Shown: positions 19,878-43,355 of the stretch, piece by piece | Layout of the letters: each line of letters begins with the position of its first letter | Numbering within the stretch: the stretch's first letter is position 1 | Assembly (NCBI GenBank): GCA_043826455.1 | Contig: JBDRQD010000046.1 | Coordinates: 32,001 to 96,000, forward strand | DNA: 64,000 nucleotides | Direction: 5' to 3' | From: Candidatus Bathyarchaeota archaeon | GTDB lineage: Archaea > Thermoproteota > Bathyarchaeia > TCS64 | Program-made: the position numbers and the translations under genes | The notes under the pieces: generated by a model | What the model was told of the DNA's origin: nothing | Databases searched by the model: none | Seen by the model: only the letters and a program-made list of their open reading frames with translations

Positions 19878-20489
19878 TTGGACGCCCGCAGACAGGTAGC
19901 CTACGAGGCCGCCCGCCTCCTCTACGACGGAGCCTACGATGAGTACAAGGACGCCAAGGAGGTCGCAGCCACCAGCCTGGGAGTGAGAAGCATACCCAGC
20001 AACTACGAGGTCGCAGAGCAGCTGGAACGGGTAGCGGAGGCTGAGGAGGGCTCAGACCGGCTGAGAAGGCTCATGGAGATGAGGATGGTCGCCGTGGAAG
20101 TCATGAAGGCCCTGGGCGACGTGAGCCCCAGGCTCATAGGAAGCGTCTGGAGGGGCACGGCCAGAATGGGCAGCGACGTGGACGTGGTGGTCTACGGCGA
20201 CCACGACCTCGTGGAGTTAACGCTATCAGAGAAATACTCAGTGAAGGAGAAGACCGCCAAGTCATTCATGGTGGAGGGGGCCCCCAGGACCTCCACCCAC
20301 CTCAAACTAGAGGTGGGGGGCTACGACGTGGAGGTGGTGGTGCGCCCCCCCAGGGACGTAGAGGCGTACAGGGATGAGCGGTGCGACATCTACGGTGACT
20401 TTAAGCGCGGCGTGGGGCTGGGGGAGCTGGAAAGACTTATGAAGACTGACCCCCTCCGCAGATTCATCCCAAGGAGGCGGCAGCGTTAA
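19878..20489 (+). CDS. Predicted nucleotidyltransferase-domain protein
   Basis: LIGSVWRG...SDVDV motif, preceded by a helical EAARLLY domain. Confidence 0.85.
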   Translation: MDARRQVAYEAARLLYDGAYDEYKDAKEVAATSLGVRSIPSNYEVAEQLERVAEAEEGSDRLRRLMEMRMVAVEVMKALGDVSPRLIGSVWRGTARMGSDVDVVVYGDHDLVELTLSEKYSVKEKTAKSFMVEGAPRTSTHLKLEVGGYDVEVVVRPPRDVEAYRDERCDIYGDFKRGVGLGELERLMKTDPLRRFIPRRRQR

Positions 20490-35988: not shown

Positions 35989-36387
35989 CTACTCTACTAC
36001 CAAATATCTCTTCTGGCGCATGTAGAGTACCCTCAAGCCCCTGTCCCTGAGCCGCCTCCTGAGCTCCGAGTCCGTCGTGGCGACCACGTAATTATACTCT
36101 GAGGCGAGCCGGATTAGGGAGTCGTCCACCGTCTCACCCTCCCGGGGCTCGTCCTCGACGACTATGCACCGGGAGGCCAGGGTCAATGCAAAGTCTAGCT
36201 CCCTCTGGAACTTAGGCCCAGCTTCCTCCTTCAGGGACTCCATCTCTCTCAGCACGCCGGAAGTGACTGTTGGCTCCACAAGCTGGTTGAGGGCCCTCTC
36301 CGCCTCTGCGAATATGTCCACGCCGAAACGGATGGGTACCAGTAAAAAGTTGGTGTCGACTAGAACCTTGGCCGGCAACTCAGCCAC
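35989..36387 (-). CDS. PIN-domain protein (Fcf1/Utp24-like)
   Basis: VLVDTNFL, VDD, VATTD; conserved position after aIF2-gamma. Confidence 0.88.
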   Translation of the reverse strand: MAELPAKVLVDTNFLLVPIRFGVDIFAEAERALNQLVEPTVTSGVLREMESLKEEAGPKFQRELDFALTLASRCIVVEDEPREGETVDDSLIRLASEYNYVVATTDSELRRRLRDRGLRVLYMRQKRYLVVE

Positions 36388-37618
36388 TTACGGTCCCTAC
36401 TCCGATGAGCCTCCACCTGCTCCCTATGCGCCTGCTGATGGCGACCCTGTCGCCCGTATCCGCGCATACGGGGATGCTGAGGCTGGCCTCCATGGTGGAC
36501 TTCCTGATGTCTGTGACGTCCCCCATGGTCTTGGCGGTGCCCACGTTCAGTAGAAGCTTCTCACCCTTGGCCACCTTGGCCACCTTCTCCTTCTCCCGGC
36601 TGCCCACCACGTTCTCGAAGAGCTCATAGTCCAATACAAGCTTCTCCAGGACCTCTGGCAGTGTACCCGGTTTGCCCACCAGGCTGCCTACAAGCCCGTC
36701 GCTCTTGGTGATGGAGGGGTCCAGCATGGTACCCACACCCGCCAACCCGCCGGGTACAGCCTCGTCCACCCCCGTGCCGCCGACGTGGAGGCTGGTTATC
36801 TCTGTGAGAAGCTCCCGCATCTTGATCCTGTTCTTCTGCCGCGTAGGCAGGCCTGGCCTGATCTCCACTTCGTCCCCCATATTGAAGTTGCCCTGGGTTA
36901 TGCTCCCCCCCAGGACGCCTCCAACGATTTCCTCGACGGCTGTGCCCGGCTTGTTGACGTCGAAGCTTCTGATGATGTACATCCTGGGCGGCAGGTCTGG
37001 GTCCCTCTCAGGCGTGGGCAGGTACTGCTCCATAGCCTGGATGAGGAGGTCTATGTTGATCTCCTGCTGGGCCGAGACCGGGATGATGGGGGCGCCATCG
37101 GCGATGCTGCCCTTGACGAAGGCCTTGATCTGGTCATAGTTCTTCAGGGAGTCTTCCCTGGACACCAAGTCGATCTTGTTCTGGACTATGATGAGGTTCC
37201 GGAGGCCCACGGCCTCTATGGCGGCCAGGTGCTCCCGGGTCTGGGGCTGGGGGCACTGCTCGTTGGCCGCGATGACCAGTATGGCGCCGTCCATCACGGC
37301 GGCCCCGCTGAGCATTGTGGCCATGAGTATCTCGTGGCCGGGAGCGTCCACGAAGCTCACGGTCCGCTGAAGCTCGGCGTCCCCGCCGCAGGCGGGGCAC
37401 TTCTCGGACACGCAGTAGCACTGGGGCTCGTCGCAGTTGGGGCACTTGTAGATGGCCGCGTCGGCGTAGCCCAGCTTGATGGTGATGCCTCGCTTGAGCT
37501 CCTCGCTGTGACGGCTGGCCCACTGCCCCGTGAGGGCCTGGACTAGGGTGGTCTTGCCGTGGTCCACGTGGCCTATGGTGCCAATGTTGATCTCCGGTTG
37601 GCGCGGTAGTTTTGCGAT
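36380..37618 (-). CDS. eif2g: Translation initiation factor aIF2 gamma subunit
   Basis: RQPEINIGTIGHVDHGKTT, RGITIKLGYA, DAPGH, QNKID, RWRLIG. The N-terminus extends upstream of GTG 37567 to a non-canonical start (ATC 37618/37624 or ATA 37627). Confidence 0.95.
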   Translation of the reverse strand: MAKLPRQPEINIGTIGHVDHGKTTLVQALTGQWASRHSEELKRGITIKLGYADAAIYKCPNCDEPQCYCVSEKCPACGGDAELQRTVSFVDAPGHEILMATMLSGAAVMDGAILVIAANEQCPQPQTREHLAAIEAVGLRNLIIVQNKIDLVSREDSLKNYDQIKAFVKGSIADGAPIIPVSAQQEINIDLLIQAMEQYLPTPERDPDLPPRMYIIRSFDVNKPGTAVEEIVGGVLGGSITQGNFNMGDEVEIRPGLPTRQKNRIKMRELLTEITSLHVGGTGVDEAVPGGLAGVGTMLDPSITKSDGLVGSLVGKPGTLPEVLEKLVLDYELFENVVGSREKEKVAKVAKGEKLLLNVGTAKTMGDVTDIRKSTMEASLSIPVCADTGDRVAISRRIGSRWRLIGVGTVSG

Positions 37619-37775
37619 GACGATTATCCCCCTGAACTAGTGGATTAGCTACTGCGCCTTATCTTAAATACATATCTCTGAAGGCTAGGAGGGTGGCTAC
37701 TCACCATGTTTTGGTAGTGTTTTGGTAACAGTTATATTAGGTTCTCGCGGACTTGAATCAGACAAGGTGCACCCA

Positions 37776-37979
37776 TTGAGCGAGGACAAGGTACCTGTGA
37801 TGATCCCCCGCAGCCTCTACCAGAAGATCGAGGAGAAGATCGCGGGCACCAGCTTCACCACCGTTGAGGAGTACGTGGCGCTGCTTCTGGAGAACGAGTT
37901 CCCGGAGGAGACGGAGTACAGCGAGGAGGAGGAGGCCCTCATCCGTGAGCGCCTCAGGAAGCTCGGATACATAGAGTGA
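37776..37979 (+). CDS. Small CopG/RHH-like protein with C-terminal ERLRKLGY motif
   Basis: VMIPRSLYQKIEEK...VEEYV; probable TTG start at 37776; directly upstream of sat. Confidence 0.75.
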   Translation: MSEDKVPVMIPRSLYQKIEEKIAGTSFTTVEEYVALLLENEFPEETEYSEEEEALIRERLRKLGYIE

Positions 37980-37984
37980 TCAAG

Positions 37985-39130
37985 ATGCCCAGACCCCACG
38001 GAGGACGCCTAGTGGACAGGCTCACCCCACCAGCCGCTGTTGAAAAGGTGCGCGGCGAAGCCACCGAACTAGTCAAGCTCGACGTGTCCGAGGAGCTGAG
38101 CCTGGACTTTGAGAACATAGCCTTTGGCCTCTACAGCCCCCTTGTGGGGCCCCTTAACCAGGACGAGTACATGACGGTTCTGGCCAAGGGGCGGCTAGCC
38201 AACGACCTGCCCTGGACGATACCCATACTCCTGGACGTGTCGGAGGAAGAGGCGGCAGGGTTCAGTGTAGGCGACAGGCTGTGCTTAGTCTGCGAGGGTG
38301 AGCCCTTCGCGGTCATGGACGTGGAGGAGAAGTACGGCTGGGACAGGAAGACCCACTGTGAGAGGATATACAAGACCACGGACCCGGCTCACCCAGGCGT
38401 AGCCAAGACCCATGAGATGAAGGAGACCCTCGTAGGGGGGTGCGTCGATGTCTACGAGCCCTCACCCGGGAAGTACCCAAAGTACCGCCTGAAGCCTCGG
38501 GAGACCCGGTTCCTGTTCAGGGAGAAGGGGTGGAGGACGGTGGCCGGGTTCCAGACCAGGAACGCGCCCCACATAGGCCACGAGTACGTGCAGAAGACGG
38601 CCCTGGCCTTCGTGGACGGTCTGTTCATCAACCCGCTGATCGGTAAGAAGAAGTCGGGGGATTTCACGGACGAGGTGATACTAGAGACCTACGAGGAGGT
38701 CATCAGGCACTACTTCCTCAGGAACAGCGCCACCATGGTGACCCTGGAGATGGAGATGAGGTACGCGGGCCCCAAGGAGGCCATACACCACGCCATCATC
38801 AGGAAGAACTACGGTTGCAGCCACTTCATAGTGGGCCGCGACCACGCCGGCGTCGGCAACTACTACGGACCCTTCGAGGCCCAGGAGATCTTCGAGGACT
38901 ACCCGGACCTGGGGATCATGCCCATCTTCTTCCGCAACTTCTTCCACTGCAGGAAGTGTGGGGGCCCCCAGAACGACAAGATATGCCCACACGGAGCGGA
39001 GGCCCACGTGAACTACAGCGGCACCAAGATGAGGAGCCTGCTGCTGGAGGGGAAGAGGCCGGACGAGACCATGATGAGGCCCGAGGTGGTGGACGTAATC
39101 CTGCGCCACAAGGAGCCCTTCAACCCCTAA
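37985..39130 (+). CDS. sat: Sulfate adenylyltransferase
   Basis: PHGG, FQTRNAPHIGHE, MRYAGPKEA, VGRDHAGVG. Confidence 0.96.
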   Translation: MPRPHGGRLVDRLTPPAAVEKVRGEATELVKLDVSEELSLDFENIAFGLYSPLVGPLNQDEYMTVLAKGRLANDLPWTIPILLDVSEEEAAGFSVGDRLCLVCEGEPFAVMDVEEKYGWDRKTHCERIYKTTDPAHPGVAKTHEMKETLVGGCVDVYEPSPGKYPKYRLKPRETRFLFREKGWRTVAGFQTRNAPHIGHEYVQKTALAFVDGLFINPLIGKKKSGDFTDEVILETYEEVIRHYFLRNSATMVTLEMEMRYAGPKEAIHHAIIRKNYGCSHFIVGRDHAGVGNYYGPFEAQEIFEDYPDLGIMPIFFRNFFHCRKCGGPQNDKICPHGAEAHVNYSGTKMRSLLLEGKRPDETMMRPEVVDVILRHKEPFNP

Positions 39131-41805: not shown

Positions 41806-42474
41806 GTGCAGCGTCAGTTGCTGGAGAGACCGAGGCTGGGCGAGTCAAGCATGCATCTCTTCCTCAAACAAGTGGGGAGACTGTTCCTCCTCAACCAGGG
41901 GTGCCACACCGTGGAGACAGAGGTCAGGCTCAACCAGCTAGGCCTCCAGCGCCTTGACGAGCTGGACAACAAGAAGATAGTGGACGTGCTCGGCGTAAGC
42001 CTCAGGTACAAGCCCATCAACTGCAAGATGGCGCAGGGAGAGAACTGCGAGGACTTCACCCTGCCCCAGCCAAGCCTGTACGATGTAGGTATCAACGTCC
42101 TCAGGGGGGTGGAGGTGAAGGTGAGCAGAGGCGACTTCAGGAACGGGTTCATATGCGCCGGCTGCAACTACAACTACGTCCTCACCCCCACCAGGCTCGT
42201 GTCCCCCAGCCTCCTCCCCAAGGGCGTGGGCCTCATAGAGTACAACAGGTACAAGTTCAGCTGCGAGCCATCAGACGACCCCGAGAGACGCCCATACAGG
42301 ATCAGTGGGCTCAGGGTAGTCCGACGGGCACAGTACAAGGAGCTGCCCCGGTTCCAGGTGGACCACGCCATCGCCGCCGTGGCGGAGAGGAGGCTGTCAG
42401 AGGCTCAGAGGGCCGCACTTGCAGAGGTGCTGACAAGCCTGGACGACCCCGAGCTTGTGTACCAGGCACCCTAA
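41806..42474 (+). CDS. Hypothetical PD-(D/E)xK protein (MmcB-like)
   Basis: VDV...GVEVKVSRGDF...YNYVLTP...LPKGVGLI. Confidence 0.6.
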   Translation: MQRQLLERPRLGESSMHLFLKQVGRLFLLNQGCHTVETEVRLNQLGLQRLDELDNKKIVDVLGVSLRYKPINCKMAQGENCEDFTLPQPSLYDVGINVLRGVEVKVSRGDFRNGFICAGCNYNYVLTPTRLVSPSLLPKGVGLIEYNRYKFSCEPSDDPERRPYRISGLRVVRRAQYKELPRFQVDHAIAAVAERRLSEAQRAALAEVLTSLDDPELVYQAP

Positions 42475-43355
42475 TCGTTGAACAAGCTCTCGATGCCCTT
42501 GAGCCGGTTCCTCAGGGTGACCTCGGTGGTGCCCGCCGCCAACGCGACGTCCTTCTGGATGCGCTTCTCCTGGGTCACAATACAAGCCTTGTAGAGGGCT
42601 GCGGCCGCAAGGCCCCGGGGGTCCTTCCCCGTGAGGCCCTGCCTCTCCCCGGCCGCGACGAGGAGGTCTATGGCGTACCTCTCGGTGCGGGTGTTCAGGT
42701 TCAGCTTGGAGGCGATGCTGGGCACAAACTTTATGGGGTCATCCACGGGCATCCTGAGGCCCAGCTCCCTGATCATGAGCCTGTAGGTGCGCGCCACCTC
42801 GGCGTGGTCCCTAGTGGAAGCCTTCGACAGGTCCTTCAATGGGCGGGGCACCTTCAACTGTCTGCACGCGGCGTACACGCTGGCCGCCACGAAAGCGTCT
42901 ATGCTCCTGCCCCTGAGAAGGTCCTTCTTGAAGGCCCGCCTGTAGATGAGGGCGGCCCTCTCCTTCACGTTCCCGGGCAGGTGGAGCTGGGCTGACAGGC
43001 GGTCCAGCTCGGACATGGCCAGGTTCAGGTTCCTCTGCTGAGTGGTGTCCAGCTTGGCCCTGTTATCGAAACGCCTGAGCCGGGTCATCTTGATGCGGGT
43101 CTCGTCGTCCAGCCGGTTGCCGTTGTGGTCCTTGTCGGCCCTGAAGACAGTGGACAGCCCCTTATCGTAGAGGGCCAGCGACGAGGCGAGCCCGGCCCTG
43201 CTGCGGCTCTGGTTCTCCTGGGTGGTGAAGGCCCTCCACTCGGGGCCGGGGTCCACGATGCTGCTCTGAACCACAAGGCCGCATGCTCCGCAAACCTCCT
43301 CGCCGGTGTCGTAGTCGATTATCAGGTTAGAGCTTCCGCAGCTTGGGCACTTTAT
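42471..43355 (-). CDS. tfb: Transcription initiation factor IIB (TFB)
   Basis: Zn ribbon CPSCGS...CGACG lies upstream of GTG 43274; GPEWRAF, RGRS, GKDPRGLAAA, TEVTLRNR. Start probably ATA 43355 or CTG 43361. Confidence 0.93.
   Translation of the reverse strand: MKCPSCGSSNLIIDYDTGEEVCGACGLVVQSSIVDPGPEWRAFTTQENQSRSRAGLASSLALYDKGLSTVFRADKDHNGNRLDDETRIKMTRLRRFDNRAKLDTTQQRNLNLAMSELDRLSAQLHLPGNVKERAALIYRRAFKKDLLRGRSIDAFVAASVYAACRQLKVPRPLKDLSKASTRDHAEVARTYRLMIRELGLRMPVDDPIKFVPSIASKLNLNTRTERYAIDLLVAAGERQGLTGKDPRGLAAAALYKACIVTQEKRIQKDVALAAGTTEVTLRNRLKGIESLFND

Follow-up and report, generated by a model that had tools for sequence, protein, structure and literature searches.

Translational autorepression of infC, the bacterial gene for initiation factor IF3, was reportedly described by Butler in 1987. 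IF3 is a start-selection factor, and its own gene carries a conserved start codon with a third-position mismatch behind a Shine-Dalgarno (SD) sequence (PMC5499595 and PMC4705826, in their passages on infC); the former names AUU or AUC as the codon that serves autoregulation. In eukaryotes, the relevant part of PMC6237735 describes a weak start signal on the gene of the initiation factor eIF1, which is kept by selection and consists of an AUG in poor context that works together with scanning. Among archaea, a passage of PMC2678158 reports an ATC start, inferred from an alignment, for an essential translation gene, L12ae of Staphylothermus marinus. That passage is a remark on a single genome and contains no analysis of conservation, selection or regulation.

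In the passages concerned, two reviews (PMC7531240 and PMC4705826) name no archaeal start codons other than AUG, GUG and UUG and leave open the role of weak starts in archaeal translational control. In the available portion of the 2020 review PMC7531240, the strings "autoreg" and "Bathy" are absent. A search of the main text of non-subscription papers found no report of a non-AUG aIF2-gamma start or of archaeal start-codon autoregulation.

The window analysed here, a 64,000-nucleotide stretch of the genome of an uncultured Candidatus Bathyarchaeota archaeon, contains an aIF2-gamma gene that combines features of these systems. Like canonical archaeal aIF2-gamma (TIGR03680, PRK04000; PDB 1KK1, 2AHO), it is a full-length orthologue with a zinc knuckle, a P-loop and a downstream PIN gene, and it differs in its start codon only, since ATG, GTG or TTG is available in most sampled orthologues. 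Like infC, it has a conserved third-position-mismatch start behind an SD on the gene of a factor involved in initiation. However, IF3 is the discriminator itself, whereas the factor here is the GTPase that delivers the tRNA, and aIF1, the analogue of IF3, starts at ATG in the host family. Repression is also proven for infC, and for aIF2-gamma it is a candidate. In contrast to eIF1, the signal is a non-AUG codon placed by an SD, on another factor. The near-cognate start is a real and selected feature of an essential initiation factor and a variant of the infC theme, with a regulatory function as a candidate.

Identity and reading frame of the gene

The gene occupies a stop-to-stop frame at 36380-37636 on the minus strand (Table 1). 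Over its full length, the product scores 643 bits against TIGR03680 (cut-off 514.5) and 655 against PRK04000 (cut-off 315). Solved aIF2-gamma structures in the PDB align from residue 11 of the stop-to-stop frame, and the whole genome contains one match. After the TAG, the minus strand reads TTC AGG GGG ATA(37627) ATC(37624) GTC ATC(37618) GCA AAA CTA CCG CGC CAA CCG GAG. The first-pass annotation had proposed that the gene begins at a non-AUG codon, ATC or ATA, and its letters for 37640-37565, including the in-frame TAG at 37639-37637, are exact. As it stated, no ATG, GTG or TTG occurs between the TAG and the P-loop, and the first in-frame canonical codon is GTG 37567. It had also assigned QPEINIGTIGH, ahead of that codon, to the G1 P-loop; the segment does precede the first canonical codon, but QPEINIG is the strand that leads into G1, and the loop itself is GHVDHGKT.

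Table 1. Positions of the features discussed, in window coordinates
Feature	Position	Strand	Remarks
aIF2-gamma CDS	36380..37618	-	412 aa counted from ATC start; NCBIfam equivalogs, PDB matches, single copy
Near-cognate start codon ATC	37616..37618	-	ATH in 60/63 family genomes; codon-like conservation directly after
Shine-Dalgarno-like purine tract	37625..37632	-	conserved -13 to -7 in 54 family loci
TATA-box-like element	37663..37670	-	most family loci have TTTAA/TATAA near -45 to -54
In-frame TAG	37637..37639	-	rules out an in-frame start farther upstream
First canonical codon, GTG	37565..37567	-	Val of P-loop GHVDHGKT
PIN/Fcf1-like gene	35989..36387	-	PF18477, PF04900 above cut-off; overlaps aIF2-gamma stop by 8 nt
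Small divergent gene	37776..37979	+	no Pfam or NCBIfam match
TFB paralogue	42471..43355	-	start ATA 43355 behind GGAGG; zinc ribbon PF08271 upstream of first GTG

An open reading frame limited to ATG, GTG and TTG begins at GTG 37567, encodes 395 aa that read MDHGKT, and loses the first strand and two P-loop residues. A protein started there would be a broken GTPase, and this codon is ruled out as the start because it breaks the P-loop. The G1 loop and the N-terminal strand are intact only with a start at or before ATC 37618.

Other sequence data agree at this site. A contig from run X1, possibly the source data, has 0 differences over 37388-38000, and contig X2, from a different strain in another study, has 36 differences over 986 nt; those listed include 37613, 37620, 37621 and 37631, with none listed at 37616-37618. 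The earlier caveat that reads might show ATG at 37618 finds no support in these contigs, and the two contigs, together with an ATH site (ATA, ATC or ATT) in 60 independent assemblies, rule out an assembly error. The closest named relative, Ca. Bathyarchaeota RBG_13_60_20 (90% identity), has ATC at the same site and a stop five codons upstream. RNA contigs from X16, which belong to another, related strain, extend to the start site but terminate within 3-6 nt of it, so that they speak neither for nor against RNA editing.

Position of the start codon

Start and SD statistics were derived from a training set of 437 unambiguous genes of the source genome, 83 of which have an SD-like motif, mostly 4-7 nt from the start. 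The GGGGGA tract that had been noted 8 nt before ATC 37618 is present at 37632-37627, and the SD lies 5 nt from this ATC, inside the genome's 4-7 nt mode. ATA 37627 and ATC 37624 lie in or against the SD motif, are unconserved, and were rejected as starts. SD spacing and homologous position therefore narrow the proposed ATC or ATA to ATC 37618, and the start is almost certainly non-AUG.

Conservation across 54 family loci spans -13 to -7 (5 of these 7 positions at 1.2-1.9 bits) but not the spacer from -6 to -1. The A of the start codon is kept in 52 loci and the T in 53, and codon-periodic conservation begins immediately 3' of it. SD pairing is predicted at -9.1 kcal/mol with a consensus anti-SD, the genome's own 16S 3' end not having been found; only 16% of the 437 training starts have stronger predicted pairing. 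Among aIF2-gamma genes, those with an ATG start have weaker SDs (median -4.8) than those with near-cognate starts (-7.3 to -11.3). The position of the TATA-box-like element would imply a short, SD-led leader of roughly 20-28 nt.

Conservation of the site and selection against ATG

In the host family, 63 of 71 genomes were matched, with codons read by eye, one EF-Tu-like row dropped and one duplicate counted once. The start site is ATC in 34, ATA in 18 and ATT in 8 of these, so that 60 of 63 carry ATH; the possibility, raised in advance, that close relatives would all have ATG, GTG or TTG here is not borne out, and the non-AUG start is conserved. Three family genomes have canonical starts. In G042, whose sister G261 carries ATA, ATG stands exactly at the site; in the other two, ATG or TTG comes one codon later. 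At the homologous position, ATG occurs in G020 and TTG in G030. In 30 of 54 family loci, the stretch from the upstream stop to the P-loop Gly is free of canonical codons, and in 33 of 54 none lies in any frame within the last 25 nt before the site. In G009 and G019, a stop lies two codons upstream and any canonical alternative is absent, which pins their start at ATH; G007 and G224 share the stop but have a canonical codon 3-4 codons downstream.

The ATH state spans a 57-row clade of three families with support 99 in a quick IQ-TREE analysis that left out three truncated rows. Two genomes of family f4 (L019, L020) have lost ATH and have ACG one codon later and an ATG within QPEM, before the first strand; their start may have shifted. 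Among 53 genes with AT at the site, parsimony counts 9 third-base changes, 1 of them to G, and G stands at this base in 1 gene. For the 93 four-fold sites within aIF2-gamma, the median number of genomes with G is 12, and no site has one or fewer. Invariant Ile sites in aIF2-gamma show the same third-base pattern as the start site. The third-base comparison supports selection that keeps the codon mismatched and acts against ATG. Related genomes are not independent, and the independent units are four clades rather than 60 genomes.

Recurrence in other lineages

In a second group of Bathyarchaeia (six genomes, of which five were fetched), the same position is CTG, preceded by GGAGG. One of the fetched genomes (G098) has no canonical alternative, another (G146) has only a distant TTG, and three have ATG or TTG three codons downstream. 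In family f26, after enoyl-CoA hydratase rows were dropped, 21 genomes of two genera start directly before QPE, with ATC in 8, CTG in 7, ATT in 2, TTG in 2, ATG in 1 and TTC in 1; other genera of this family have an ATG start further upstream. The Asgard sample matched 82 of 111 genomes, with five Lokiarchaeia-like loci not parsed. In three of its genomes, one of them Atabeyarchaeum deiterrae, ATT follows at a distance of six bases from an SD containing an in-frame stop. Two of the three have no canonical codon before the P-loop, as does one further Asgard genome, and six Asgard genomes have CTG behind GGAGG with ATGs downstream.

In a midpoint-rooted FastTree of 172 proteins, near-cognate aIF2-gamma starts fall into four groups with canonical clades between them; the four groups may reflect independent origin or ancestral retention. 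A canonical start is available in 49 of 51 parsed non-Bathyarchaeia loci and, as judged by eye, in nearly all rows of a phylum sample (113 of 136 matched). In Methanoperedens (L251-L287) and Methanomicrobiales (L271, L274, L289), aIF2-gamma starts are mostly TTG. A wider bias of aIF2-gamma away from ATG is possible.

Specificity among initiation factors and across the genome

In the host family, all 64 matched genomes use ATG for aIF1, and eIF5A has a canonical start in 21 of 21. The starts of aIF2-alpha (n=52, six off-target rows dropped) are ATG in 39, TTG in 10 and GTG in 3, and those of aIF2-beta are ATG in 27 and TTG in 1 (30 loci fetched from 65 matched genomes, two cut). The near-cognate start is thus specific to aIF2-gamma when set against aIF1, aIF2-alpha, aIF2-beta and eIF5A.

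Weak canonical codons account for 136 of the 437 training starts, and the initiator tRNA is standard, with a CAU anticodon and A1-U72. Codons behind strong SDs show no genome-wide near-cognate excess: 179 of 301 are canonical, and the rest include 5 CTG, with 2.7 expected. The standard CAU initiator and the lack of ATH enrichment behind strong SDs speak against an altered genetic code or a special initiator tRNA, and the same codons give no support to genome-wide ATH initiation. A self-trained screen with a sensitivity of 26% picked out 37 of 2812 gene models in which coding signal precedes the first canonical codon, and about 15 of these look like real CTG, ATA or TTA starts. As a rough inference, this suggests near-cognate starts in 1-3% of the genes of the source genome. 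Six sporadic cases (ScpB, TFS, Mrp, GatC, a phosphomutase and adenylate kinase) are canonical in up to five other genera, except for one ACG.

One of six TFB paralogues in the source genome also has a near-cognate start (Table 1), and the other five start canonically. Its orthologues within the genus have ATA or ATT in 18 of 21 loci and ATG in 3. Since near-cognate starts occur on other genes of this genome, and this one keeps ATA throughout the genus, a translation-factor loop does not follow from conservation.

Candidate explanations for the near-cognate start

The explanation we favour, although we stop short of calling it probable, is that the near-cognate start provides stringency-dependent feedback on aIF2-gamma synthesis in the manner of infC. 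Comparative evidence indicates that aIF2-gamma would be translated from its own short SD-led mRNA with its start at AUC 37618. The ordinary initiator tRNA (CAU) would read AUC with a third-position mismatch, while a good SD would hold the position. By analogy with infC and eIF1, strong aIF1/aIF2 proofreading would reject the AUH start and leave less gamma, and slack proofreading would allow more to be made. Passages of the literature bear on such a loop: aIF2 assists codon probing and moves the tRNA outward if it fails to pair with a start codon (PMC5103072), but discrimination against AUU is assigned to aIF1, in Sulfolobus (PMC4705826); aIF1 and aIF2 interact in a proofreading complex (PMC6237735). 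The locus shares with infC and eIF1 a conserved poor start signal on the factor's own gene, here with ATH in 60 of 63 genomes and avoidance of third-base G. Moreover, the genome has many weak canonical starts, and aIF2-alpha relies on such codons in 13 of 52 loci, but low output alone would not require the mismatch and the above-average SD that aIF2-gamma keeps. The canonical starts of aIF1 and aIF2-beta, the recurrence in four clades set apart by canonical ones, and the normal initiator tRNA also speak for feedback.

Which way any feedback would run is uncertain, since aIF2 is carrier and proofreader of the initiator tRNA at once. A title in the reference list of PMC5499595 states that AUU initiation in E. 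coli is highly IF2-dependent; since aIF2 delivers the tRNA, more aIF2 could raise AUH initiation. Near-cognate starts on unrelated genes, the three canonical family genomes, the interchangeable codons of family f26 and the availability of a canonical start in most other sampled archaea all count against feedback. A broader conjecture, which we advance with slightly less confidence than feedback at this locus, is that archaea repeatedly evolved infC-like stringency feedback and tied it to different initiation factors in different lineages. In this Bathyarchaeia order, in two further clades of Bathyarchaeia and among some Asgard archaea, aIF2-gamma would be limited by its own near-cognate start, possibly with a small co-regulated set such as the TFB paralogue.

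Most of the data would also follow from a fixed dosage cap, which comes close behind feedback as a plausible, though less favoured, account. On this view, AUH keeps gamma low and proportionate to alpha and beta, with free gamma being harmful and no feedback involved; in one variant, the coupled PIN gene may be capped together with aIF2-gamma. Passages of PMC3828320 and PMC3936769 are in keeping with a need for restraint: aIF2-gamma is essential in Haloferax volcanii and its overexpression impairs growth, and the Sulfolobus protein binds 5'-triphosphate mRNA ends. The interchange of various weak codons in family f26, the TTG starts in Methanoperedens and Methanomicrobiales, and the stronger SDs of near-cognate starts relative to ATG starts, as compensation would give, all fit a cap. 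Nevertheless, TTG, GTG or a weaker SD offers a simpler route to low output, but ATH and a conserved SD are kept in 60 of 63 genomes. The strong SDs that accompany near-cognate starts also suit an improbable bypass, in which SD-led AUH is read best through aIF2-independent delivery of the tRNA by aIF5B, and gamma is still made when aIF2 is scarce. A review (PMC6412873) leaves room in archaea for recruitment by aIF5B independently of aIF2, but the relevant passages give no direct evidence for such an archaeal path.

Neutral drift under lax start selection, with a codon that decayed once and was never repaired, is very unlikely. Sporadic CTG, TTA, ATA and ACG starts in the source genome and one relative give it some footing, but these starts are canonical in the other genera checked, and strong SDs reveal no genome-wide near-cognate enrichment. 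The third-base test largely refutes drift, as the aIF2-gamma site avoids G across an order-level clade, and the state recurs in other clades. Less likely still is that ATH is a conserved internal Ile and that the start lies elsewhere, through an upstream start, a leader-ORF frameshift, an intron or RNA editing. In its favour, ATC, ATT and ATA make up the full set of Ile codons, the invariant Ile sites vary at the third base as this site does, and an in-frame canonical codon stands 2-9 codons upstream in some relatives. However, these upstream codons are unconserved and lie in or beside the SD, and 33 of 54 loci have no canonical codon in any frame over the last 25 nt. An internal Ile is rejected because of the stops two codons upstream in G009 and G019 (also G007 and G224), the SD, and the ATG, TTG or CTG that replaces ATH at the same position in other genomes.

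A selected near-cognate start on the carrier of the initiator tRNA is a natural substrate for testing archaeal start-codon control in vitro, in Pyrococcus and Sulfolobus systems. If feedback is true, the third domain and a new factor would join the known cases of start-codon autoregulation. In addition, gene callers limited to ATG, GTG and TTG cut aIF2-gamma, an essential marker protein, within its P-loop.

Neighbouring genes and additional observations

The PIN/Fcf1-like gene is probably co-transcribed and translationally coupled with aIF2-gamma. Its start is canonical in 34 of the 39 family loci with a match and unresolved in 5. The small divergent gene stands beside aIF2-gamma in 33 of 54 family loci, and its start is canonical in all 33.

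Five of the sporadic cases are seen in the source genome only. ScpB, TFS, Mrp and GatC apparently start with CTG and adenylate kinase with ATA (L173, L174, L175, L178 and L179, on G000 contigs C56, C31, C2, C59 and C6). TFS of G174 has ACG after a stop. Within the window, a phosphoglucomutase-family gene on the plus strand has an apparent TTA start at 20486-20488 with a strong SD, and five relatives have GTG, ATG or TTG. In a LeuA-family gene (L171, G000:C57:58184-59707, minus strand), the first in-frame canonical codon lies 123 codons in. Its orthologues (4 of 4, drawn from three genera) share a mini-ORF of six codons, which starts at an out-of-frame ATG and runs over a conserved TTA TTA of the main frame; programmed frameshifting, reinitiation and a leucine-codon start are candidate explanations.

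The Sulfolobales-like rows of the phylum sample also have a TTG start on aIF2-gamma. Asgard loci L343-L350 encode aIF2-gamma with an N-terminal extension of about 100 residues, which begins with what we take to be a helix-hairpin-helix-like segment. Archaeal aIF2-gamma contigs also occur in assemblies labelled as bacteria (L220, L227, L235, L291) and are probably mis-binned.
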